A stretch of 64,000 bases of DNA. It comes from a bacterium (GTDB lineage Bacteria; Hinthialibacterota; Hinthialibacteria; Hinthialibacterales; Hinthialibacteraceae). A program made the position numbers and the translations under genes. How positions within the stretch are numbered: position 1 is the first letter of the stretch; each line of letters opens with the position of its first letter. Below are positions 7,524 through 55,903 of the stretch, in pieces. The notes under the pieces are model-generated. The model did no database searches. It had not been told where the DNA came from and was given only the letters and a program-made list of their open reading frames with translations. The stretch spans positions 128,001 through 192,000 of the forward strand of contig CAXXSM010000118.1 of the NCBI GenBank assembly GCA_963663405.2, read 5' to 3'.

Positions 7524-7919
7524 ATGATTGAAATGGAATTTTGTGAATTACGATTGGACGAAACCGGGGCGGATCAGATTGTGATCCTCAAAGAGAAAGA
7601 CGGCGCGCGCATGATGCCCATTATGATTGGGTATTACGAAGCCCATTCGATCCATTTGGCATTGAATGAAATCAAAATTCAACGGCCCCTCACCCACGAT
7701 CTAACGACTCAGATTATTCAATCTCTCGGCGCTAAAATGGAACGGGTGGTGATTAACGATCTGCGAGATTCCACCTTTTTCGCCCGGATTTATTTTGAGA
7801 CCGATTCTGGAATCGTAGACGTCGATTCGCGTCCCAGCGACGCGATCGCTCTCGCAGTAAGGAATGGCGCGTCCATCTACGTCGAACCGGAAGTGCTCGA
7901 ACAAGTCGCGCGGGAATAA
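7524..7919 (+). CDS. Bifunctional nuclease family protein (DUF151)
   Basis: PIMIGYYEA, RPLTHDL, TFFARI, DSRPSDAIALA. Confidence 0.92.
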   Translation: MIEMEFCELRLDETGADQIVILKEKDGARMMPIMIGYYEAHSIHLALNEIKIQRPLTHDLTTQIIQSLGAKMERVVINDLRDSTFFARIYFETDSGIVDVDSRPSDAIALAVRNGASIYVEPEVLEQVARE

Positions 7920-8141
7920 CGCCTTTTACACAATTTACGATTTTCCACGCTCAAAATCAACAATTCTCAGCCGCATTTCCCAACTCTATCGCCATTCCCT
8001 CAATTCATGTGATTTCAAGTTTTTTCTTTTTTTTCTTGCAATCACGCCGGGATGAAATAAACTTCTAATTAGTGAATGAAAAAAATAGGAGGCCGTGGAC
8101 TTATTACTACATCGCTTTGGTAGAAAGGATGTGTTGCTTTC

Positions 8142-8459
8142 ATGATAACCAATCATTTTGAAGACCGAATACGCGTACAAGTGACAAAACGCCTCTCCAA
8201 GCGGGACATCCTGAGTATTGTCGAGGATTTTGCCCGGCAAGGCCTTACTTTCGCCGTCTCCCGGCTGAAATCCGACTATGAAGTATGGCGGGAAATTTTG
8301 CCCGGTGACCAACCCCGGATCAAAAATCGGAAAGACGGGATGTCCTTTGCCGGTGTCATCGCGGAAGATAAAAACGATTTGGAACAACGAAATTTTATCT
8401 GCATCTGGGATCACGGTAATTTGGTGCATGGAGATCCAACCGAATTTAAATTAAAATAG
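8142..8459 (+). CDS. Hypothetical protein
   Basis: 105-aa ORF with AAGGA RBS, followed by an intrinsic terminator. Confidence 0.6.
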   Translation: MITNHFEDRIRVQVTKRLSKRDILSIVEDFARQGLTFAVSRLKSDYEVWREILPGDQPRIKNRKDGMSFAGVIAEDKNDLEQRNFICIWDHGNLVHGDPTEFKLK

Positions 8460-8491
8460 AAGAAGATCGGCGTCACACAACATATTCATAT

Positions 8492-8523
8492 AACGGCCTT
8501 CCCGCCAAGGGGGGCCGTTTTTA
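8492..8523 (+). terminator. Rho-independent terminator
   Basis: AACGGCCTTCCC-loop-GGGGGGCCGTT followed by a T run. Confidence 0.75.
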
Positions 8524-8668
8524 ATTGTTTAACAAGAACAATTGCATAGAAACATTATTCTGGTTAGTGAAATGACATTGAATATCAAACAAATCCGTAA
8601 ATAATACGTAGATCCTTATTCTCATTCACCGTTAGTAATTTAGATTTTTTCCAATCGATGTATGAACA

Positions 8669-9841
8669 ATGAAAATACTATTTGTGACCCCATGTGTTCC
8701 GACAAAAACCGATGGACGGCGGCCGTACAATTTTATCAAGTATCTCTCGAAGCAACACAAAATACATCTCGCGGCCCTAATTTTACCAAACCAACAACCC
8801 TCCGATATCCGGCGGATTCAAAATTTGGGAGTCCAAGTCACTTCGATTGAGGTCGCGCCTTCACGCTCCATGCTGAATTGTCTTTTCGGTTTACCCCTAG
8901 CGCGTCCGCTGCGGGTTTCCTGGTGCCAATATCAAGATATGCGCAACGCAATCGAAATGATCCTCGAAAAAGACCATTATGACATCATTCATGTCGACCG
9001 GATGCGTATGGGACAATATGCGCGGGGCTTGCAACCCAAAAAAGTGATCGATTTCACCGATTCCCTGCTCCTTTATTTGGAACGCTCCCGGCCTGTCCGC
9101 CGCCGCTGTGGGGAACGCTGTGTGGACTGGTGGGAATCTCGTGTCATTCCCGCTTACGAACGGAAATTATTGCGGTACGCGGACGCTTCAATCGTCTGTT
9201 CAGACGTGGACGCTCAGATTTTTCACCAAACCCACCCCGGCTCATCTTTTGAGGTTGTGGAAAACGGTGTCGACCTCACACAATTCACTCCCAAAACCCA
9301 CGATCCCAATCACTTTCCCCGCTGTATTATCACCGGCACACTCTTTTATTTCCCGAATATCGACAGTGTGCTGTATTATACGGAAAAATGTCTGCCTTGT
9401 ATCCGCAAAACCTATCCGGAAATGGAAACTCTCGTGCTGGGCACGCGCCCTTCCCGTGAAATTCAAAAACTCGATGGGAAGATGGGCGTACAGGTCTATC
9501 CTGATATCCCACGCATGGAAGATTGGCTCTATTCCGACGATATTTATCTCTGTCCACTGCGCGTAGGGGCGGGAGTGCGTAATAAACTCATGGAGGCGAT
9601 GGCGGTGGGGATGCCTATCGTAACTACTCCCCTTGGTCCAGAAGGAATGAACGTAAAACATGAAAAAGAAATGCTCTTCGCCGAAACACCTGAAGAATTC
9701 GAACAGCAGATTACACGGTTGATAGAATCCCCCGATTTACGCCGCTCACTCAGTGAAAACGCCCTAAATTACGTACGCGACCACCATGATTTAGAAATCG
9801 TTGGCGCAAAATTGGAACGCCTTTATGAAAGTCTGCTATAG
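8669..9841 (+). CDS. Glycosyltransferase family 4
   Basis: MKILFVTP, VENGVD, GAGVRNKLMEAMAVGMPIVTT. Confidence 0.9.
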   Translation: MKILFVTPCVPTKTDGRRPYNFIKYLSKQHKIHLAALILPNQQPSDIRRIQNLGVQVTSIEVAPSRSMLNCLFGLPLARPLRVSWCQYQDMRNAIEMILEKDHYDIIHVDRMRMGQYARGLQPKKVIDFTDSLLLYLERSRPVRRRCGERCVDWWESRVIPAYERKLLRYADASIVCSDVDAQIFHQTHPGSSFEVVENGVDLTQFTPKTHDPNHFPRCIITGTLFYFPNIDSVLYYTEKCLPCIRKTYPEMETLVLGTRPSREIQKLDGKMGVQVYPDIPRMEDWLYSDDIYLCPLRVGAGVRNKLMEAMAVGMPIVTTPLGPEGMNVKHEKEMLFAETPEEFEQQITRLIESPDLRRSLSENALNYVRDHHDLEIVGAKLERLYESLL

Positions 9842-35334: not shown

Positions 35335-36432
35335 ATGGACATTTCCGCGCTTTTAAAAACATTGACGGTGGAAGGGGCTTCTGATTTATATTTGAAAGTC
35401 GGTCTTCCTCCCTCCATTCGAGTGCATGGCAATGTAATGAGAATGGACGCGGCCGCCGTGACGGACGCAGATATGGACGCAGTAATCAAGCTATTATTGA
35501 CGGACCACCAGTTGCGAATCTTTCAAGAACGGCCCGATTTGGACTTCGCTCACGCGCTGGATTCAGGAAATCGGTTCCGGATCAACCTATTTCGTCAGCA
35601 GGGACATATCGGTCTTGTGGCCCGCGCCATACACGACGCCGATTTGTCGTTCATTAAACTACATCTGCCACCTGTCGTGCGGGAGATGGCGGAACTGCCG
35701 CGCGGTTTGGTGTTAATTACCGGCGCGACGGGCAGCGGCAAATCGACGTCGCTGGCGGCGATGATCACGCATATTAATAAAAATTTCTCCCGGCACATCG
35801 TCACGGTGGAAGATCCAATCGAATTCATTCATACGGATCAGAAATCAGTGATCAACCAACGGGAGGTAGGCTTTGACACACACAGTTTCGGAGACGCCCT
35901 GCGGCATGTCGTGCGGCAAAGCCCGGACGTGATTCTCATCGGTGAGATGCGCGACAACGAAACGATGATGACGGCGATCGCCGCCGCCGAAACAGGGCAC
36001 CTGGTTTTAACGACTCTGCATACAGCGGATGTCTCCCATACATTGGACCGGATCATTAACTATTTCCCCGACCATCTAAAGAATCAGGTGCGGCAGGAAC
36101 TAGCGTTATCGCTGGAGGGAATTCTCTGCATGCGTTTGGTACGGCGCGCCGATGGAAAAGGACGGATTCCCGCTTTGGAGATCCTGCGCACGACTTCAAG
36201 TGTAAAACAAGCGTTACTGGATGGGGAGTTGTGGCGTTTGAAAGAATTGATGCAGAAAGGGCGTGAATTCGGGATGCAGACGTTCAATCAGTCTTTGCTG
36301 GATCTCCATCAGCAGGAAATTGTCACGTTTGAAGAAGCGATGCGCGCATCCACGAATCCGGAAGAGTTCAAATTGAACGCGCAAGGGATGTTTACCGGTA
36401 CGGATTCGGTCGCTCTCTACAATCAGGAATAG
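35335..36432 (+). CDS. pilT: PilT/PilU type IV pilus retraction ATPase
   Basis: ASDLYLKVG, RFRINLF, TGATGSGKST, TVEDPIE, QREVG, PDVILIGEMRD, AETGHLVLTTLH, GMQTF. Confidence 0.9.
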   Translation: MDISALLKTLTVEGASDLYLKVGLPPSIRVHGNVMRMDAAAVTDADMDAVIKLLLTDHQLRIFQERPDLDFAHALDSGNRFRINLFRQQGHIGLVARAIHDADLSFIKLHLPPVVREMAELPRGLVLITGATGSGKSTSLAAMITHINKNFSRHIVTVEDPIEFIHTDQKSVINQREVGFDTHSFGDALRHVVRQSPDVILIGEMRDNETMMTAIAAAETGHLVLTTLHTADVSHTLDRIINYFPDHLKNQVRQELALSLEGILCMRLVRRADGKGRIPALEILRTTSSVKQALLDGELWRLKELMQKGREFGMQTFNQSLLDLHQQEIVTFEEAMRASTNPEEFKLNAQGMFTGTDSVALYNQE

Positions 36433-45345: not shown

Positions 45346-45936
45346 TTAATTTTTTAACGAGGTAATCCCTATATCCCCCGCGCTGCGTATGCCGTTACTT
45401 GGATTGTATGTCGCGCGAGAGAGTAAATGGGGAGTGCGGTAGGCGATTCCCAATCCCGAATCCTTTGCGTCAGGACCGACGCTGACCAATGCGAAAGCGC
45501 GTAACGGCTTCCAGGGGGGGACGTGATAGCGCCTATAATCGAAATAGGTATATCCAACCACATCGGGGATATTCAGATCAAGCGCCACCGATTGTTTGAT
45601 CTCGATCATGGTTTCCCGGCTGAAATCGTCTTCCAATAGAGAACAATCGTTGGGGATGTAGACCCCTAAGAGAGGCTGCAACGCGACGCAAGCGTCAAAG
45701 TCACTCCACAACGAGGGAATAGGCGTCGTCGATCCAACCGGGTAGCAACCAATGTCGGCGGCGTAGGATTCAAGCCCGTTTCGTATAACGTTAAGGTTGT
45801 TTTTCGTTGCCGCAATCCGCGACCGAATCAGCGCATTTTGAACCAGTGGAGCGGTCAATAGAGTGAGAATCGACAACACCGCCAATGTTACGGTCAGTTC
45901 GAGGAGCGTGAAAGCTTTTCGAGACCTATTTATCAT
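45346..45936 (-). CDS. GspG-like pseudopilin
   Basis: RKA|FTLLELTV N-methylation motif; LESYAAD...YP; SVGPD; YNPSNGIRSAGDI. Confidence 0.85.
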   Translation of the reverse strand: MINRSRKAFTLLELTVTLAVLSILTLLTAPLVQNALIRSRIAATKNNLNVIRNGLESYAADIGCYPVGSTTPIPSLWSDFDACVALQPLLGVYIPNDCSLLEDDFSRETMIEIKQSVALDLNIPDVVGYTYFDYRRYHVPPWKPLRAFALVSVGPDAKDSGLGIAYRTPHLLSRATYNPSNGIRSAGDIGITSLKN

Positions 45937-46083
45937 GATGATTTACGATTTAACGAGATTTTGATTCCCCAATTATAATCATATATCGCCAATTTCCCAC
46001 TCATCTTTCAAATAAATGAAAAATTTCTGTAAACTGTTTACTTATTTTCAGCATTCTTTTTATCACATTCGGAATTCAAAGGA

Positions 46084-46752
46084 TTGAGCACTGACGAGAC
46101 AGCAAACAGTTATATGGCGGATACAGAAGCGCAACATATTCAACAGGATCGAATTGATTTTATCATCCTAAGGGTGCAAAACGGTGACCGGGAAGCGTTT
46201 ATGGAATTGGTCGACCGTTTTAGCGGTATGGCATATTCTACGGCATACACCATTCTCCGGAACAAGGAAGACGCCGAAGACGCCGTTCAAGAAGCTTTCA
46301 TTCGCGCTCATAAATACTTGCATACGCTAAGCGATCCTCGCCGCTTCGGAGGATGGCTGCGTTCAATCGTCCACCAGGAGTGTTGCAATCTCATTCGGTT
46401 TTGGAAGCGGAAAAAGAAAGGATTGGACGAGGTTCAAACTGAATTGCTGGAACGGCTGTCGTCTTTGTTCCGCAATGGGCCGTCGTCAAAGGCTTATCGA
46501 AACGAAATCTGGGAGCGGAGCCTGTCAGTTTTAAGTCAGCGAGCGCGGGAGATTGTACTCCTATATTATATGGAAGGTTATACTTACGCTCAAATAGGCA
46601 ATCTGCTGCAACTGACGGAAGGGGCCGTAAAAAGCCATCTCCACAAGGCGCGTAACAAAATTGGACGACGATTAAGTAAATTAGGTGTCACTTCACTGGT
46701 TGGCATGGGGTGTTTAGTTATTTCAATGTGCAATATTATAATGCCGGGTTGA
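46084..46752 (+). CDS. ECF sigma-70 factor
   Basis: GDREAF, DAEDAVQEAFIRA, FGGWL, YTYAQIG...EGAVKSHLHKAR. Confidence 0.92.
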   Translation: MSTDETANSYMADTEAQHIQQDRIDFIILRVQNGDREAFMELVDRFSGMAYSTAYTILRNKEDAEDAVQEAFIRAHKYLHTLSDPRRFGGWLRSIVHQECCNLIRFWKRKKKGLDEVQTELLERLSSLFRNGPSSKAYRNEIWERSLSVLSQRAREIVLLYYMEGYTYAQIGNLLQLTEGAVKSHLHKARNKIGRRLSKLGVTSLVGMGCLVISMCNIIMPG

Positions 46753-46816
46753 TAGCGAACGGCAATGTTGGTGATGTCAAAAAACCATTAAACCGCCGAT
46801 AGTGTGAGAGTGAGAA

Positions 46817-47674
46817 TTGATCATGCCGAAGAACGTATCTAATCAAGAAAACAATCGATCCGCCCCTGAGACCGATGATTTTATGCGGATAATCGCCGAT
46901 TCAGTTCGACCGGACAAACAAGCGATTCGCAAAGGCGTCGAACGGCGTTTGCGAGACAGGATGTTGCGGAATAATGTCTTATTTAAAACCAACGCGCCGT
47001 CATCCTCGTTTGCCTACCGGCGATGGGCCTCCGTTTGTATTGTATTTCTTGCGTTTCTATTGGCAGTTTATTGGTTGTTTGATTTGACCACCGCCAAAAA
47101 CGGCCACTATATCATTTTACCCGCCGGGCAAGTCCAACTGAGAGACGCGGGAAAAACGCTTACTAAAGTCAGTTCTATCGATGCGGAGGGAGAAACCATT
47201 AAAACTTTGAACGGCGGAGGAGCGTCACTCTACCAAGTGAATGGATACTGTGTCCGAATCGCGCCGCTATCATCCCTGCGCGTAACCGATGAAGATTGCG
47301 TTGAATTAAAGAACGGATCTTTGTTCGCTGAAGTGAAAAAACGCTCCGATACAGCAAAATCGTTTTCCGTCAACGCGGGGGATATTAAGGTTTATGTCTT
47401 GGGAACAGAATTCTCGGTCGAGAAAAATAACGGACGCATTGAAGTCGCCGTTCGAAAGGGGCGTGTACGAGTGGTTGCGGTGGAGAATAATAAAGAATTG
47501 ATACTGAATGCGGGTGAAAGCGTCGCATTTCACCAGGGAAAGATCGATGAACCAAGCAAAATCGCTTTGGAACGTATCGCCCCCTGGCGACAAACGTTAA
47601 TCCTAGCAGAGAAAAATAATCCACTTCTACGTGATTTAATGGAAAAATACTTCAAAAGTCGAACTTTGAAATAA
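46817..47674 (+). CDS. FecR-family anti-sigma factor / transducer
   Basis: Single TM; LKNGSLFAEV, VYVLGTEFSV, VAVRKGRVRV, LNAGE. Confidence 0.85.
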   Translation: MIMPKNVSNQENNRSAPETDDFMRIIADSVRPDKQAIRKGVERRLRDRMLRNNVLFKTNAPSSSFAYRRWASVCIVFLAFLLAVYWLFDLTTAKNGHYIILPAGQVQLRDAGKTLTKVSSIDAEGETIKTLNGGGASLYQVNGYCVRIAPLSSLRVTDEDCVELKNGSLFAEVKKRSDTAKSFSVNAGDIKVYVLGTEFSVEKNNGRIEVAVRKGRVRVVAVENNKELILNAGESVAFHQGKIDEPSKIALERIAPWRQTLILAEKNNPLLRDLMEKYFKSRTLK

Positions 47675-47898
47675 TTTTTTAATCTATGGAAACACGAGCG
47701 CTAAATAAGAAATGTTATTATTTATTGATTCACATGTATAAGGATGGCAAAACTCTGATCACTCGCTGGCCCGAAGAGATCGTATGATTTTTGCGTATTA
47801 AGGAGGAATCTAACCGGCTTGGTAGGAGTAATCCTCTCCTGCTTATCAAAATGATATGACTTTGTGAGCGCCCGTTCAAACTACTTGAGGTTGAATCA

Positions 47899-49578
47899 AT
47901 GGATCTTTTATTCTCCCTTTTCTTGATGATCGGCGCTTCTCAACCTTCCATTGACGAGGCAGCCGCTCCATCCACTCCATCATCGGCGTATGATTACAGT
48001 TCAGAAATCCTATATCAAACCTACGGATTTCTCAGTGGAATAACTACAGACAGATTGGGGATCGTTGTTTGCAACCACCAAGGGAACCAAGTGATTCGGT
48101 TGACTTGGCAGGGAGAAGTTGAAACGATCGCCGATACTCCCGGTTCGCCTGTTGATGTAGAGTATGTTGATGGCGAATATTGGATTCTACTCAATGATCC
48201 GCCGGTGCTGATGGCGTGGAATCCCATTTCCCAGGAGCGAAGGATTCTTTTTATTGATTTTGAAAGAGAATCCAACCTTACCGCTTTTGCGGTCGCCTCG
48301 CGGGATATTGTATACGCCGCCGATTTCGGTGGAACCATCTATCGGATTGACCTGGTTGCGCAAACGAACACGATCGCTTATGACGGTCTCGATAATCCCG
48401 CTGACATCGCCATCCTTTCAGAAGGAGAGATCGCCGTCACAGAGCAAGTGGGATCCGACGCCCAAAACGGCCGGATTCGTTTTTTCCTCCCAAACGGACA
48501 AGATAAGATGCGGGAACTTATCTCCTACGAACTTATCGATCCAACTGGTTTGGCCGCCGGCCCGGATGGCAGCGTATACGTTTCAGTTTTTTTTAATAAC
48601 AGCGTAGACAGCAATGATCCAGATCAAATACCCGTTGACAATCCAGATTCGCCTGCAATTCCAGATTTAGATACAGATGAATATTATGGAAGAACGATTG
48701 GCGGGATTTATCGTTTTTCCTCCTGGACTTCGCAACCGCAAATCGTCGCCCGCGGATTACGCGGTCCAACCAGTTTGGCAATAACTCCTGAAGGAACGAT
48801 TGTTGTGATTGAGGAACCGAGTAACTCTATCCTTTCGGTCAGTGTGGATGGAACGCTCGATACACTCTTCCGCGGGACATGGAAGCCCCTGGCGATGAAA
48901 ATATTCGTCGACGGTGTAACCGCATATCTAACAACCAACGAACAGAACGTTTACCTAGAGTTTGCCGTGGGTGAATCGAGAGCCAATGTTTGGACGTTCA
49001 CCCATTCGGATGTATCTGTTCCACAAATCGAACTGGGCGGCGACGGCCTGTTGTACGTGTACGATCCCCAATTTTCGGAAATCCTTCTTTTTCAATCAAA
49101 TGGGAGATTAACGCAATCCTATACCATCTTTTTGGGGGATGGAGAGGTTCCCTATTTAATGACCGATCCCACGGGGGGAATTGCGCTGTTTGCTTGGATA
49201 TCCGGCGTTCTACACGTTCAAAAGGTCAATCGAGATTCAATGGGCGATGTCGTTGAGTATGATGACGACTTTTCTTCGTTGATTTATCTTGACGAAGAAG
49301 GAACAATACAAGACGCTAAGAGAAAAAATTCCCTTGGTGACGATGTGCTTTCCCATTCAACCATCGCTGTCGATGCGAATGGTGATATATGGTATATAGA
49401 CGACAGCGGCGACGTCTATCGGGTCAGCGGCAATCAGACAGAGCGTATCGCCGAAAATCTAGGAAGCGTTCGAGGTGTTTCACCGGATGGAGACGACGGA
49501 TTGAACGTTACCTTGGAGAATGGCCGCGTCATTCATCTATATCCATCCACACCGGTTTCCCGTTGGTGTCTCTTTTAA
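47899..49578 (+). CDS. Secreted acidic NHL/beta-propeller protein ending in STPVSRWCLF
   Basis: GLDNPADIA, LIDPTGLAAGPDGSVYV and GLRGPTSLAITPEG repeats. Confidence 0.75.
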   Translation: MDLLFSLFLMIGASQPSIDEAAAPSTPSSAYDYSSEILYQTYGFLSGITTDRLGIVVCNHQGNQVIRLTWQGEVETIADTPGSPVDVEYVDGEYWILLNDPPVLMAWNPISQERRILFIDFERESNLTAFAVASRDIVYAADFGGTIYRIDLVAQTNTIAYDGLDNPADIAILSEGEIAVTEQVGSDAQNGRIRFFLPNGQDKMRELISYELIDPTGLAAGPDGSVYVSVFFNNSVDSNDPDQIPVDNPDSPAIPDLDTDEYYGRTIGGIYRFSSWTSQPQIVARGLRGPTSLAITPEGTIVVIEEPSNSILSVSVDGTLDTLFRGTWKPLAMKIFVDGVTAYLTTNEQNVYLEFAVGESRANVWTFTHSDVSVPQIELGGDGLLYVYDPQFSEILLFQSNGRLTQSYTIFLGDGEVPYLMTDPTGGIALFAWISGVLHVQKVNRDSMGDVVEYDDDFSSLIYLDEEGTIQDAKRKNSLGDDVLSHSTIAVDANGDIWYIDDSGDVYRVSGNQTERIAENLGSVRGVSPDGDDGLNVTLENGRVIHLYPSTPVSRWCLF

Positions 49579-50773: not shown

Positions 50774-51307
50774 TCATGTAGAAGGAGTGTCTGCGATGGG
50801 GAAGACGGTCCAGGAGCCGTCTTTCTTAAGGACGCATAGTTTTGTTGATGAGATTTTTAATACTGTATCCCTGTAGGAGAATTCAACCTGTCCTGTGATG
50901 AGGAATCCGTCTTGCATGGTTTCTTGATCGGTATGTTGAAGCGCGAGTTCTTTGGCGGATTTGATGGTGTACCCATAAACCGCTGGAATCGCGCGTTCGG
51001 ACATGTCGATGGGTTCATCTTTAAAATCCAATGGATCGAGATCGACGTAAACCGGCGCAATATGTATCGCATACATATTACTATCGATCTGTCCGGGATC
51101 GTCCGCTTTGGATAATTCACTGATCGCCCGCTCGATGGCTCCTTCCGCGAGCCAATTCGCTTGTTTCAGCGTTAACACCCGGTGGGTTTGACTGGCGAGA
51201 AACAAGGTGCGGGCGGTGTAAGCGATCATCAGCGTCCCCGCTACGAATGTAAAGATCAATATCGCCGGGAGACTGACCATCCCTTTTTGTTTCGATCGTT
51301 CGTTCAT
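50774..51307 (-). CDS. GspK/PilX-like minor pseudopilin
   Basis: QKG|MVSLPAILIF (no E5); ANWLAEGAIERAI. Confidence 0.75.
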   Translation of the reverse strand: MNERSKQKGMVSLPAILIFTFVAGTLMIAYTARTLFLASQTHRVLTLKQANWLAEGAIERAISELSKADDPGQIDSNMYAIHIAPVYVDLDPLDFKDEPIDMSERAIPAVYGYTIKSAKELALQHTDQETMQDGFLITGQVEFSYRDTVLKISSTKLCVLKKDGSWTVFPIADTPST

Positions 51308-51798
51308 GGATGTAACTGACTCCCTTTCACAAACGTAATCAAGCGTTTTGGTCTCACGTCCAACGGGCGGCCTTTCGCTTCTTCAAACCATTCCATGCGG
51401 ATGGCGCCATCGGATGTCTTTTCCAACAGGAATTGCGCGTTCCCCAAGTTCGCGATTTTCATGGAAAGATCGTTCTTTCCTTCTTCATTCTGGTTCCGGA
51501 TTAATTCTCCGTTTTCAAGAGTATAGGTTATTTTTTTTACGGCGCCGTCCGCCGAAAGTTGAGTAAGGAGTAATAACGCGCTCTCGGATTGACTTACTTG
51601 AAATGAGTGGTTGATATCTTTTTCAATCCGGCTGAGCACCGTCTGCGCTTTGATGGAGAACATAACGTTATCGGTCGAAACCTTCGCCATTCTTTCAACT
51701 CGAAGCCACATTACACCCACAACTCCCGCCATTACATTCAACATAAGAACCACGATCATCAATTCGATCATTGTAAAAGCGCGTAAGTTTTTTTTCAT
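51304..51798 (-). CDS. GspJ/PilW-like minor pseudopilin
   Basis: LRA|FTMIELMIVV; LSRIEKDI; ITYTLENGELIR. Confidence 0.8.
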   Translation of the reverse strand: MKKNLRAFTMIELMIVVLMLNVMAGVVGVMWLRVERMAKVSTDNVMFSIKAQTVLSRIEKDINHSFQVSQSESALLLLTQLSADGAVKKITYTLENGELIRNQNEEGKNDLSMKIANLGNAQFLLEKTSDGAIRMEWFEEAKGRPLDVRPKRLITFVKGSQLHP

Positions 51799-52805
51799 TG
51801 ACTATCCTCCTTGCAATGGCGAAAGCCAACTAAACGGTAGCAACGGTTGAATTCAGAGCCTACTCCTGCATCATGTTCAAGAAGGATGGTAATTTTCAAG
51901 AGATTAGAATCTTCGGTTTTCATTACGTAATACTTGCCGGAAACCGGGACGTGTAGTTTGAATTCAGTCAGTGGAATCGGTAATTCATATGATTTATTCG
52001 AGGGAGCGAACACGGTATCCGCCGCCATGATAAAATGCATCTGGGAATCTAGAATCTCCCCCATTTGCACGCGGAGAGCGAGTTCTTTTTGACAGCGGAT
52101 ACAATAACTCCAGCTGTGAACCATTCCATAACTTAAAATCCCCAAAACAGCGACTGCGATCAAGATTTCAATCAGGGTAAAACCATCATTAGAGAAGGAA
52201 TCGGATGGATCCGAAACTCTACCTGAGAAGGGGAATAGATACCGGCGGATTTCAAGATTGCGTGGGAAATACGCGCAAGACGCAATGAAACAACCAAGAA
52301 AAATATATGTTAATGGATTGGTCATAATCCCTTGAATGCCTGAACCATTGCCTATTAAAACGGATAAACAGATTATAAATAAAATCAATCCACCAATACT
52401 GCAAATAACTACTCCAATCATCAAACCTGGAAGCCGATTGAAACACCAGAAGAGAATGAGACCGACGGAGATGCCCGCCATGAAATTGCGGCAGAAGGCG
52501 CCGAACGGTAAATCGGAACTGCCTAAAACCGCTAAGAGTCCTATTAGGACCACAAAAAACAGGCAATAGGAGACGAGAAAGCGAATCGTTCTCTCTTTTC
52601 TCAAGAACGCGCAGAACCACAGCATTAAAGCGATTAGTATTGGCAGAGCGGTCATTAAGTTCTCAAAACTCTGGGAGTACGAAGCGCTGGTTGTGGAAAA
52701 GGAGAGACTAAACCAAGCGAAAAGAATGGCTATACCGAAAAAAACCATCAGCAAGACTCTCAGTACACTCATTGGAGTCAGACTTGATTCCTTTTCCCTT
52801 CTCAT
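51795..52805 (-). CDS. Polytopic membrane protein fused to an internal prepilin (GspI/PilV-like) domain
   Basis: About six hydrophobic segments, then DG|FTLIEILIAVAVLGIL at residues 208/209. Confidence 0.75.
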   Translation of the reverse strand: MRREKESSLTPMSVLRVLLMVFFGIAILFAWFSLSFSTTSASYSQSFENLMTALPILIALMLWFCAFLRKERTIRFLVSYCLFFVVLIGLLAVLGSSDLPFGAFCRNFMAGISVGLILFWCFNRLPGLMIGVVICSIGGLILFIICLSVLIGNGSGIQGIMTNPLTYIFLGCFIASCAYFPRNLEIRRYLFPFSGRVSDPSDSFSNDGFTLIEILIAVAVLGILSYGMVHSWSYCIRCQKELALRVQMGEILDSQMHFIMAADTVFAPSNKSYELPIPLTEFKLHVPVSGKYYVMKTEDSNLLKITILLEHDAGVGSEFNRCYRLVGFRHCKEDSQ

Positions 52806-52835
52806 GGTTTTTCCTTTTCTTCTTGCCCTGTACTT

Positions 52836-53900
52836 TTAAAAACGAACGGCTGAAAAAATATTGAAATAATTGAATAAAGGCAAATACAGAGCGACCATCG
52901 TGAATCCTCCCAATACCACTACGGCGAAAATGAGAAAAGGTTCGAGGATTTCTCGCACGATTGTGGTTAACGAATCCAGTTGCCGGCGATGGTATGACGC
53001 CATGTTTTGCAGGGTTTTGCCCAATGTTTCCGTATTCCCAGAACCGGCGGATTCGGCGATCATCCATAACGTTGTATGGGGGATAATTAGATTGTGATCG
53101 CCGCCCGAATAGGATTCACCCGCAGCGATGGCTGTATCGAGTTCCTCCATTGCGATGCGGAGCATGGGGCTGGAGACGGACTCCTTCGCCAATTGGATCG
53201 CCTCTTGTCCAGAATTGCCGGCTTCCATTAAGACACCAATCATCTCGCACACCTCGGCCGATTTAGCGTGCCGTTGAAGAAGCCCTAAAAAGGGAATAAA
53301 GGGGACATACAGTAAGATCCGGTCAACGAATCGAGCGGAGGCCGAACGGCCTTCTACATCCGTTCCGACCCATCCAATCAGAATCCAAGCGAAGTAAAAG
53401 AGAAGCCCATCACCGACGATTAAGATCGCCGGTCCTATCCCCATATATAATTGAGTCATCTCTGGTAATTGCGATCCATACATATTGATGAATTTAGGAA
53501 TCACCATATAGCCGAAGAGGATCATTTCCAGCAGTAGGATCGTCCAGATGAGGAAGGGATAAATCAGACATTTCTGTAATTTATGCTGGACCTCACGGGC
53601 GGACTGTAAATAGCCGCTGACGGAGACAAGCATGCGTGAAAGCGCTCCACCTTCCTCCCCCGCGCGAACCATTTTCCGCAGCATCCTAGGGAAGTACTTT
53701 GGATAATTATCCAAGGCGTCGGAGAGAGAAGAGCCCAGTTGCACCAATTCCGAGACATTGGCCTGCGCCTTCTTCCATCCCTTGTCAATCGCTTCGCGGC
53801 TCATGTTATGGATCGTCTTATCCATAGGCAGTTTCAACGCGAGCGCCGAAGAGAGCTGTTCGACAAATAAGATCAGATTATCCCATTTATATTTAGCCAT
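52836..53900 (-). CDS. GspF/PilC-family inner-membrane platform protein
   Basis: QLSSAL, GSSLSDAL...FPRM...AGEEGGAL, LIYP, VIPKF, LEPFLI...ALYLPLF. Confidence 0.88.
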   Translation of the reverse strand: MAKYKWDNLILFVEQLSSALALKLPMDKTIHNMSREAIDKGWKKAQANVSELVQLGSSLSDALDNYPKYFPRMLRKMVRAGEEGGALSRMLVSVSGYLQSAREVQHKLQKCLIYPFLIWTILLLEMILFGYMVIPKFINMYGSQLPEMTQLYMGIGPAILIVGDGLLFYFAWILIGWVGTDVEGRSASARFVDRILLYVPFIPFLGLLQRHAKSAEVCEMIGVLMEAGNSGQEAIQLAKESVSSPMLRIAMEELDTAIAAGESYSGGDHNLIIPHTTLWMIAESAGSGNTETLGKTLQNMASYHRRQLDSLTTIVREILEPFLIFAVVVLGGFTMVALYLPLFNYFNIFSAVRF

Positions 53901-53909
53901 ATTGTTACC

Positions 53910-54476
53910 TCATGGTCCGAAAAACGTGATGGCTCCTTCCGATGAAGTGCCATTACTTGGATTGTATGTCACCAGCGTATTGAGATTAGATGGATCGAAC
54001 TTGTTTATATAAGAGGGGCCCATTCCGTATACGAGGTAATTGGCGCTTCCCCCCGCGCGTCCAAACTTTGATAATGGCACACGCGCGCCTTCGCTTTGAA
54101 TAAAATTAATATAAAAGTACCCTTTATTGTTATCGCGTTCGTTTTTTATGAACTCCCACTTATCGAAATCTCCCGGCGCGAGGAATACATCATCCGGTAA
54201 TTCAGAAACATAGGGGATAGGACATGTGATCGGATTTAAATCGCCTATGGACATCTTTCCACTTTCTTGATTCAGTGGATAATCGTCCATATCCACGCAG
54301 TACATTTCCAACGCCCAAACGAGCATGCACTGTTCGGCTTCAGATCGGGCGACTTTCGCGCGAATGGAGGCGTTCAAAAAATTGGGAACCGCGATTGCGC
54401 ATAAAAGAGAAATAATAGTGATGACGGCCATCAATTCAATCAGCGTAAAACCAGGGGACATGCGTCTTATGATCAT
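53910..54476 (-). CDS. GspG-like pseudopilin
   Basis: G|FTLIELMAVITIISLLCAIAVPNFLNASIRAKVAR; ALEMYCVD..YP; ITCPIPYV...DVF; YNPSNG. Confidence 0.88.
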   Translation of the reverse strand: MIIRRMSPGFTLIELMAVITIISLLCAIAVPNFLNASIRAKVARSEAEQCMLVWALEMYCVDMDDYPLNQESGKMSIGDLNPITCPIPYVSELPDDVFLAPGDFDKWEFIKNERDNNKGYFYINFIQSEGARVPLSKFGRAGGSANYLVYGMGPSYINKFDPSNLNTLVTYNPSNGTSSEGAITFFGP

Positions 54477-54761
54477 GGCAAAACTCCAGTAATTTACAGA
54501 ATCCCTCTTCAAGATTGAGTAAACCGTTCAATGCGCTTTTAATTCATAACGGCTGATCCGTTACAATTTCTTAGTTTTCCTATGACGATTCTTTAGGGAG
54601 GTCTGCAGAAATACCCCGATCCAGGAGTATATCCAATATATTTTTTCAATCTCTTTAATTGATAAAATCATAAATGGGGATAAATAAAGGACATTCATTC
54701 TCCGCCCAAAGCAGGCAGGCCATAATTATTGAACAAATCCAATAAAAAAACAGCCGTTCTC

Positions 54762-55262
54762 TTATCGATCGGCGCACTTGGTATTTTTCTTGGGGGTTGG
54801 TTCCAAGAGAATTCCTTCCTCCCGGTAAATTTGAAGGGTTTCATCGTTGTAGATATTGGATAAAACCGATTCTTCAACCGGCTTTTTAACCTTTTTCGAT
54901 TGAACGGAATGCTGCAATTGCTCAAAACCCGTGACAAGCCCCCCCGTGACAAGCGCAAATACGCAGGCGGCGCCAGCGACCCAGCCAGCCAACCGGCTAA
55001 AGGTCTTACGCGGACTTTCTTCTTCTTCTAGAATAATTTCCCGTTTCACGGTCGCGAGCAGTTCGGGAGGCGCGTCAAAAATCCCCTCGGACGCTCCCAG
55101 GCCATCCAACCGGGTCAAAAGATCCTTCCATCGCGCCTCTTCCGCCCGGCAGAACTCACATTCCAACAGATGGCGGATGAATAGATTGAGCTCGCGCTCA
55201 TCTAATTCGCGATAGAGGTACTCTGACCAACGGTTTTGAACGTCCTTGCAAGTAAATTTCAT
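54762..55262 (-). CDS. Zinc-finger (HxxxCxxC) anti-sigma factor with one TM
   Basis: CKDV...YLYREL...HLLECEFCR; overlaps the sigma stop codon. Confidence 0.85.
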   Translation of the reverse strand: MKFTCKDVQNRWSEYLYRELDERELNLFIRHLLECEFCRAEEARWKDLLTRLDGLGASEGIFDAPPELLATVKREIILEEEESPRKTFSRLAGWVAGAACVFALVTGGLVTGFEQLQHSVQSKKVKKPVEESVLSNIYNDETLQIYREEGILLEPTPKKNTKCADR

Positions 55263-55903
55263 TGATCGTTCGCGGCCTTTTTAGTCGATTGAGACGCATT
55301 CTGCGCCGCATTCAATTCGCCGATTTCTCTTTTCGAAAGGTTGGTTTCTCCCAAGCCTAGCAAACTCCGTAATTTAAGCAAGGTCTGATGCAACGTCGCT
55401 TTAACGGTGCCCACCGGAGCGCGAATCACATCCGCAATTTCACGGATTTTCAAGTTCTGGAAATGTCGGAGAACAAAGATGGAGCGCTGCCGGTCCGTCA
55501 ATTTTTCCAACGCATTTTTGATTTGGTTTAAATCCTCGGTTTGCTTCGCATATTCATGGGGCGTCACGCCTTTTTCAGGAAGAGACATTAGAATGATATT
55601 GTCAGACGTCGTTTGCGTTTCGTAATGGCGCCGCTGCCGCAATCGATCGATGCAGGTATTAACAATGACACGGTAAACCCAGCGATCAAGGGCGACATCC
55701 TTTTTCAGTTTCGGCCCAAAACGCCAGACCTTTAAAAACACTTCCTGGGCCACATCAAGGGCGTCTTCATGTTTGCTCACCATGCGCAACGCGGTGTAAT
55801 ACACCTGTTGCTGGAAGCGCCGGACGAAAATCTCGAAAACACCGGGATCTTTGTCCCTGATTCCCTGTATTAACTCTTTTTCAGATATCATTGTAACTAT
55901 CAA
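55259..55903 (-). CDS. ECF sigma-70 factor
   Basis: DALDVAQEVFLK, WVYRVIVNTCID, LTDRQRSIFVL...EIA...PVGTVK. Confidence 0.92.
   Translation of the reverse strand: MIVTMISEKELIQGIRDKDPGVFEIFVRRFQQQVYYTALRMVSKHEDALDVAQEVFLKVWRFGPKLKKDVALDRWVYRVIVNTCIDRLRQRRHYETQTTSDNIILMSLPEKGVTPHEYAKQTEDLNQIKNALEKLTDRQRSIFVLRHFQNLKIREIADVIRAPVGTVKATLHQTLLKLRSLLGLGETNLSKREIGELNAAQNASQSTKKAANDQ

Follow-up and report, generated by a model that had tools for sequence, protein, structure and literature searches.

The main finding of this work is a conserved gene family in which a membrane domain, of six helices in the gene described here, precedes the cleavage site of a prepilin in one open reading frame (ORF). The gene was found in a stretch of 64,000 nucleotides (nt), hereafter the window, which comprises positions 128,001 to 192,000 of contig CAXXSM010000118.1 (C118) in the genome assembly GCA_963663405.2, a draft of 170 contigs and 82% completeness from a bacterium of the phylum Hinthialibacterota. 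A first-pass annotation of the window had described the product as a prepilin with a membrane domain in place of a leader peptide, from which prepilin peptidase would release a free polytopic protein and a minor pilin. Prepilin leaders are by definition short, hydrophilic and located at a free N-terminus, and pilin search tools assume so. As judged from its sequence, the protein fits the definition of a class III (prepilin) signal peptide save for one feature, the short hydrophilic N-terminal leader. Our findings reveal that the fused gene is genuine, conserved and unusual, and they suggest that its product is a precursor of a GspI-type pseudopilin. The gene and its parts, in window coordinates, are as follows (↓ marks the prepilin site; aa, amino acids; TM, transmembrane; AF2, AlphaFold2).

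51795..52805, minus strand: fused gene (336 aa plus stop) comprising a six-helix membrane domain, a linker and a GspI-like pseudopilin (ORF listing)
52806..52819, minus strand: AAGGA resembling a ribosome-binding site, 6 nt 5' of the ATG of the fused gene, 30 nt past the GspF stop (sequence reading)
52269..52775, minus strand: six predicted TM helices, residues 11-179, with both termini predicted inside (AF2, hydropathy)
52233..52274, minus strand: YFPRNLEIRRYLFP, residues 178-191, the most conserved motif of the N-terminal domain, membrane-adjacent and predicted to be cytoplasmic (alignment)
52182..52259, minus strand: leader-like linker ending at G208, residues 183-208, variable in sequence and constrained in length (AF2, spacing from proline to site)
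52119..52184, minus strand: class III site G↓FTLIE and hydrophobic alpha1N helix, residues 208-229 (PF07963, TIGR02532)
51798..52181, minus strand: predicted mature GspI-like minor pseudopilin, 128 aa, residues 209-336 (AF2, VIA-align, Foldseek)

The prepilin site and the sequence that precedes it

The prepilin site was recognized by two models. The Pfam N_methyl family (PF07963) matched residues 207-228 (E 2.5e-6; 27.3 bits, cut-off 21.2 bits) and TIGR02532 matched residues 208-225 (E 1.2e-6; 28.1 bits against a cut-off of 16.3). The site reads ...SFSNDG208↓F209-T-L-I-E213, where G208, F209 and E213 supply the small residue at position -1, the hydrophobic residue at +1 and the glutamate at +5 of a class III site. 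Instead of a short leader, 207 residues with six hydrophobic helices come before it, as detected both by a hydropathy scan and in the AF2 model, which bears out the earlier description of a canonical G↓FTLIE placed after TM segments. Among 35 distinct long members of the family, position -1 is occupied by Gly in 28, Ala in six and Ser in one, position +1 is Phe in 30, and the glutamate at +5 is present in all 35.

The linker that separates the last membrane helix from the site appears disordered in the AF2 model, with a predicted local distance difference test score (pLDDT) below 50 at residues 183-186 and 192-209. Its length is constrained: of 41 distinct sequences, 21 have a distance of 27 residues between an invariant proline and position -1, and the core family stays within 23-30 residues. 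The last ~27 residues before the site may behave as an ordinary long leader, to which the membrane domain was added N-terminally.

The absence of a nearby start codon is exceptional in this genome. Upstream of the site, an in-frame ATG, GTG or TTG is first encountered 47 codons away, at M161, in agreement with the earlier remark that no methionine occurs in the ~45 codons before it. As a control, the whole 8.44-Mb genome was scanned for ORFs with a prepilin motif (n = 145), and 143 of them had an in-frame start less than 25 codons before the site. One had no upstream start at all (its motif is at residue 3 of a 96-aa frame), and the fused ORF stood alone both in having its nearest start 47 codons off and in having at least two hydrophobic segments upstream. 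Six of 17 family members likewise have no ATG, GTG or TTG within 25 codons of the site, and the start positions of those that do have them share no alignment column.

Conservation and reality of the fusion

A six-frame search of 61 genomes (the window genome and 60 relatives) recovered full-length fused frames of 336-392 aa without internal stop, 27-38% identical in sequence, from 16 further genomes, one frame being cut by a contig end. At E < 1e-60, the family profile matched 17 of the 35 genomes of the phylum that were searched, namely 15 of 20 in the family to which the window genome belongs and 1/2 and 1/4 in two sister families, with no match at that threshold in three further families. 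A profile of the N-terminal domain (N-domain) alone matched the same 17 genomes once each, every time inside the fused frame, and no stand-alone gene for this domain was found by it in the 35 genomes.

Beyond the phylum genomes, phmmer returned 35 matches at E <= 1e-3 from 1.84 billion representative proteins, 26 of them 316-413 aa long. Among the nine shorter ones, four without an initial methionine begin within the N-domain and are fragments, and two are fragments of the pilin part. The database entry P0012 is called as 148 aa starting with MRYFFPY, within the conserved motif, P0034 has two helices ahead of its site, and P0028, of 133 aa and with the leader MNHSSRQTG↓M, is a genuine stand-alone pilin, which shows that an ordinary leader can suffice for the pilin part. 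A word-indexed search of 5.8 billion proteins with the N-domain profile, limited in sensitivity, gave four matches, all fused, and the same kind of search seeded with P0035, a distant eight-helix relative, returned only P0035 itself. The ESM Atlas yielded only generic small pilin clusters, at 0.87, and a contig search with a generic pilin helix pattern found six unrelated pilins from other phyla. So far, the family is confined to one small uncultured phylum, apart from a few divergent relatives in the databases whose site is preceded by two or eight helices. The fusion claimed by the first-pass annotation is thereby confirmed in homologues, which form one uninterrupted frame in the 16 further genomes and are mostly fused in the databases, a split into two genes not being seen in either.

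Independent assemblies agree with this picture. Contigs of public runs from three studies (X1, X2 and X3) cover the fused gene with no indel. The X1 contig spans the whole gene with four changes, all of them synonymous, and the X2 contig carries nine changes, three of which alter an amino acid, none of these in the N-domain, and has no stop or indel; the X3 contig is identical to the window gene and may be its source sample. A stop codon, for the loss of which the first-pass annotation had suggested a check of reads, is present in neither X1 nor X2, which carry substitutions only. In the closest pair of genomes, both of one genus, the ratio of nonsynonymous to synonymous substitution rates (dN/dS) was 0.21 over the 201 codons of the N-domain and 0.06 over the pilin part; by the former value, the N-domain is translated in this frame and is under purifying selection. 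Over five more distant pairs, identity was 26-39% in the N-domain against 44-57% in the pilin part; at the sequence level, the N-domain diverges faster than the pilin part.

The N-terminal membrane domain and its topology

AF2, run with an alignment of 24 sequences, placed the helices of the N-domain at residues 11-37, 41-65, 71-94, 100-124, 127-151 and 164-179, with pLDDT of about 65-83, and a crude hydropathy scan likewise gave six hydrophobic segments ahead of the site. Conservation is concentrated in three spots, an N-E-R after helix 2, an N-x-L-P after helix 4 and P181-R182...R188-Y189 past helix 6. In 24 sequences, P181 and R182 are invariant and R188 and Y189 are conserved to at least 90%; when the N-domain is aligned, no columns but those of P181 and R182 are invariant. 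Within the helices, no conserved polar residue was found. Nearly all conserved residues of the domain lie in predicted cytoplasmic loops, and all three motifs fall in loops that the positive-inside pattern would assign to the cytoplasm.

This pattern is pronounced in the window protein, which has nine lysines and arginines (K+R) on loops 0, 2, 4 and 6 and one on loops 1, 3 and 5. The same K+R bias, together with six pre-site segments, was seen in 12 of 18 family members. Counted by the crude hydropathy scan, which is not a validated topology predictor, the helices ahead of the site number six in 14, eight in four, four in two and two in one of 30 database representatives. The longer members (399-413 aa) gain two helices, not one, and in P0035 the K+R counts alternate cleanly (2,0,2,0,3,0,2,0,10). 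Since an even number of helices brings the site back to the cytoplasmic face, the class III site is predicted to lie on that face, as proposed in the first-pass annotation. Prepilin peptidases cut at the cytoplasmic face (PMC4471445, PMC10191384).

Searches for relatives of the N-domain gave little. None of 16 members had a Pfam match in this region at E < 0.1, a sequence profile against the PDB produced only weak transporter hits (E 0.004), and VIA-align retrieved only generic helical bundles (Z <= 9.7), below the level that is meaningful for helical proteins. A complex prediction of the N-domain (residues 1-207) with the neighbouring GspF scored 0.00, which speaks neither for nor against contact between the two. 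The idea that the domain is itself a prepilin peptidase of family A24 was discarded, as it has no PF01478 match, an hhalign comparison with the PilD of the genome gave a probability of 0.4%, and there is a single Asp up to helix 6 and no GxGD. A likeness over 12 columns of the FPRxLE..Y motif to the C-terminal tail of the same PilD was dismissed as chance, the Arg not being kept in any of five PilD orthologues.

The pilin part is of the GspI type by predicted fold

In the AF2 model, the pilin part consists of a helix (residues 211-261) followed by four strands, with pLDDT mostly above 90, that is, an alpha1N helix and a globular beta-domain as in type IV pilin-like proteins. VIA-align superimposed residues 238-331 on XcpV (5bw0_B) with Z 9.2 and a root-mean-square deviation of 2.4 over 85 of 89 residues, followed by GspI (3ci0_I, Z 7.9) and EpsI (2ret_A, Z 7.8), each alignment covering nearly the whole target. 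The top match of Foldseek was 9a1f_R, a 116-residue chain of an Xcp pseudopilus model (TM-score 0.72, E 0.011). The GspI equivalog model TIGR01707 gave 18.4 bits (E 0.0022), short of its cut-off of 44.35. By its predicted structure, the pilin part is a GspI-type minor pseudopilin within an I-J-K set, which supports the minor pilin of the first-pass annotation and sharpens its identity. GspI forms with GspJ and GspK the tip complex that starts pseudopilus assembly, and priming by the I-J-K complex was reportedly described by Cisneros et al. in 2012.

The operon and its place in the genome

The fused gene belongs to a compact group of genes on the minus strand, whose other members are listed below.

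55259..55903, minus strand: extracytoplasmic function (ECF)-type sigma-70 factor (PF04542, PF08281)
54762..55262, minus strand: anti-sigma factor with a zf-HC2 domain and one TM helix (PF13490, E 4.1e-7)
53910..54512, minus strand: GspG-like major pseudopilin; the true start is likely to be the ATG 12 codons further on, for a leader of MIIRRMSPG↓FTLIE (N_methyl, TIGR01710)
52836..53900, minus strand: GspF/PilC-type platform protein, 354 aa, directly upstream of the fused gene (PF00482, E 2.8e-30; TIGR02120, E 9.4e-43, below its cut-off)
51304..51798, minus strand: GspJ-like minor pseudopilin, 164 aa, leader MKKNLRA↓FTMIE (AF2 with pLDDT 84, Foldseek)
50774..51307, minus strand: GspK-like cap pseudopilin, 177 aa, leader MNERSKQKG↓MVSLP, no Glu at +5 (NF037980, weak, E 0.05)

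The start of the J-like gene overlaps the stop of the fused gene (ATGA), and the I, J and K genes are coupled by 4-nt overlaps. Foldseek compared the J-like protein best with XcpW, GspJ and EpsJ (5bw0_A, E 2.4e-3; 3nje; 3ci0_J; 2ret_B). The leaders of G, J and K are ordinary, with about 5-14 residues; G orthologues have short ones as well, and the leader of the J-like pilin ends in Ala in eight of 12 orthologues. The K-like pilin lacks Glu5 in 12 of 12 orthologues; as tip complexes that start assembly are capped by a subunit without Glu5 (PMC10191384), the K-like gene fits a capping subunit of the K type.

The order G-F-I-J-K, with the GspJ- and GspK-like genes next to the fused gene, is kept in 11 of 11 loci of relatives, and in all 11 the fused gene has a GspF orthologue of 43-56% identity as its neighbour. 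Five genomes lack the fused gene, and in them the best F match reached 24-29% identity, compared with 43-56% in carriers. The module therefore comes or goes as a unit, these five genomes also being without the F orthologue. The sigma/anti-sigma pair is adjacent in nine of the 11 relatives' loci and in the window, and is not so in the two closest ones, G012 and G009. A motif shared upstream of the G gene, as expected of a common promoter, did not emerge convincingly, no 6-mer occurring in more than eight of 12 loci.

The GspF of the module is uniformly short, with ~349 aa in the window and in the loci L029-L040, and begins M-A/S-K-Y/F-K-W-D-N-L. It aligns from about position 63 of the 401-position GspF model, the usual first ~60 residues being missing. 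In the corresponding locus of a genome that belongs to a different family within the class (L039; G026:C134:1-14000, at about 7600-9700), F-like genes form a tandem pair. The pilin encoded there is more divergent, with ~4 hydrophobic segments ahead of the site in its open frame, and in-frame ATGs also occur at -5 and -2.

The module is not a complete type II secretion system (T2SS) cluster, as E, D, L, M and C are missing from it; ATPases and secretins are encoded elsewhere in the genome. A canonical T2SS cluster is found ~55 kb off on the same contig (C118:113-125 kb), with E, G, H, an I candidate, J, K and a secretin, and it carries its own pseudopilins, including the I candidate with a short leader. 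The GspF of this canonical cluster (C118:122391-123641, about 4.4-5.6 kb before the window start) appears broken, its T2SSF matches being spread over three frames of 141-168 aa, so that the gene may be a pseudogene or may have been misassembled; the F of the satellite module is intact. The genome also encodes, on contig C139, an intact PilD of 273 aa, with the zinc finger and both Asp motifs, a CpaA-type peptidase and further type IV filament systems.

Other genes of the window touch on the same subjects. A second regulatory and pilin-like group at 45346-49578 consists of an N_methyl protein (45346-45936, minus strand), an ECF sigma factor (46084-46752, plus strand), a FecR-type anti-sigma factor (46817-47674, plus strand) and an NHL-repeat protein (47899-49578, plus strand). 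A lone ATPase of the T2SSE family, 365 aa and thus of PilT-like size, is encoded at 35335-36432, ~15 kb from the module. In the genome as a whole, the 145 ORFs with a prepilin motif amount to a very large pilin-like repertoire, and relatives of the same order have at least 57-61 matches each to a profile that contains the pilin.

Proposed processing and alternative explanations

We hypothesize, as a reading that is on balance probable, that the fused protein is a GspI-type precursor with a six-helix membrane 'leader' of ~207 residues, which PilD would cut after G208. With six helices, the N-terminus and the class III site would both come to lie on the cytoplasmic side, and PilD would cut after G208 as in any prepilin. 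Cleavage would free a normal pseudopilin of 128 residues, able to leave the membrane and nucleate the tip complex, while the six-helix domain would remain as a separate membrane protein in a 1:1 ratio to the priming subunit. That the housekeeping PilD cleaves here we regard as rather probable. Recognition by the peptidase is favoured by the small residue at -1, the phenylalanine at +1, the invariant Glu5 and the disordered, length-constrained linker, and cleavage is favoured because a tip subunit must leave the membrane when the filament grows from tip to base (PMC10191384), which a six-helix anchor would prevent. The membrane domain itself would probably act as a pro-domain for holding or targeting, or else assist the assembly platform.

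Several points weigh against this reading. We know of no prepilin peptidase substrate whose leader contains membrane helices. No family or fold was recognized for the N-domain, so that any role ascribed to it is a guess. Odd helix counts, which would leave the site on the wrong face, were obtained for nine of the 30 database representatives, and we assume that they are errors of the crude segmentation. The operon consists only of the sigma and anti-sigma factors, G, F, the fused gene, J and K, with no ATPase, secretin or L, M and C genes. Position -1 holds Ala or Ser instead of Gly in seven of 35 members. The window protein has a net charge of -2 over positions -15 to -1, unlike most members; the acidic pre-site noted in the first-pass annotation is real in the window but does not extend to the family, in which the charge lies between -4 and +5, most often at 0 to +5 (35 distinct long members), and it is a trait of the window genome. 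Finally, leaders of 6-26 hydrophilic residues ending in Gly are what one review describes (PMC4471445).

Some of these points would fit the main rival, in which the protein stays uncleaved and the GspI-like pilin, covalently tied to its six-helix anchor, serves at the membrane as a fixed nucleation point, a stopper or a J/K base instead of moving along with the pseudopilus tip, an alternative that we consider unlikely, if still credible. It would explain why the N-domain is never found apart from the pilin, either in the 35 phylum genomes or in the word-indexed 5.8 billion proteins, and it sits well with the Ala and Ser at -1 and the acidic pre-site of the window; PilD may refuse a substrate so different from the short, hydrophilic leaders that are known (PMC4471445). 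Against this, a small residue at -1 in all 35 members and Phe at +1 in 30 of them are kept amid a variable linker, which is difficult to account for if no peptidase acts on the site. Ala at -1 is normal in the short-leader J-like pilin of the same operon, and Strom and Lory are said to have described tolerance at this position in 1991. The stand-alone P0028, with its short leader, also speaks against a need for the anchor, and so does the tip-to-base mode of assembly (PMC10191384), in which an anchored tip subunit could not exit the membrane. A different view of cleavage takes the class III site as an internal processing site of a membrane polyprotein and PilD as a regulatory protease, the freed six-helix protein, with its conserved cytoplasmic face of NER, NxLP and PRxxExKRY motifs, serving in assembly as a stoichiometric factor or acting as a signal, one conceivable receiver being the co-encoded ECF anti-sigma factor. 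We judge this quite improbable, and the signalling to the anti-sigma factor that the first-pass annotation had tentatively proposed gained no result in its support; the pair is adjacent in nine of the 11 loci and not so in the closest ones, G012 and G009.

The remaining explanations question the fusion itself. Two products might come from one frame, the pilin being translated from an internal start and the membrane domain being an upstream protein that has lost its stop, and some members, with in-frame starts 5-25 codons before the site, would allow it: L002, for instance, has an ATG at -8, L013 at -11 and L018 at -5 and -2, P0002 has a Met at -13, and P0012 is called from MRYFFPY. This objection, also foreseen in the first-pass annotation, fails on the lack of any start within 47 codons in the window and within 25 in six of 17 members, on the lack of a conserved start column, on the control in which 143 of 145 prepilin-motif ORFs have a start less than 25 codons off, which makes its absence here exceptional, and on a frame that is kept open across 17 genomes at ~30% identity; we therefore hold it to be very improbable. 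An artefact in which a lost stop or a frameshift joined two genes would be conceivable in a draft metagenome-assembled genome whose canonical GspF, on the same contig, is split over several frames. It is refuted by the same fusion in 16 other genomes and ~25 further database representatives, by the contigs of three studies without an indel and by the purifying selection on the N-domain.

Comparison with known systems and significance

The fused protein resembles GspI, XcpV and EpsI in its predicted fold, its mature size of ~128 aa, the G↓FTLIE with Glu5 and the position of its gene before a GspJ-like gene and a Glu5-less K-like gene. It differs from GspI in carrying a six-helix extension of 207 residues instead of a short leader, in scoring far below the equivalog cut-off, and in belonging to a satellite G-F-I-J-K module from which H, E, D, L, M and C are missing, whereas the canonical cluster has short-leader pseudopilins of its own. 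With the long-leader prepilins (type IVb, Flp and the major pilins of Streptococcus sanguinis) it shares a hydrophilic and variable stretch of 23-30 residues ending in G or A; their leaders, however, have a free N-terminus and no membrane helices, while here six helices precede. Searches of open-access full text for a membrane-spanning or polytopic prepilin leader, or for non-pilin substrates of PilD, yielded no description of such an architecture. According to PMC10191384, the last residue of a leader is Gly or Ala, and S. sanguinis has 'very long leader peptides'. The modular type IV pilins PilB and PilC of S. sanguinis offer another likeness, an extra module joined to a pilin, but theirs is located at the exported C-terminal end and is kept on the mature pilin (PMC10191384), whereas the integral membrane module described here precedes the site and would be lost upon processing.

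Taken together, the analysis defines a compact and separately regulated G-F-I-J-K module in a little-known phylum, and within it a conserved family in which a membrane domain of six helices, or of eight or two in some members, stands before a prepilin site. If the protein is cleaved as proposed, the range of possible prepilin peptidase substrates would be widened, and a single translation product would give rise to a polytopic membrane protein and a filament-priming subunit in a fixed 1:1 ratio. If it is instead left uncleaved, the family would represent a membrane-tethered tip pseudopilin, which would bear on how minor-pilin complexes start filament assembly.

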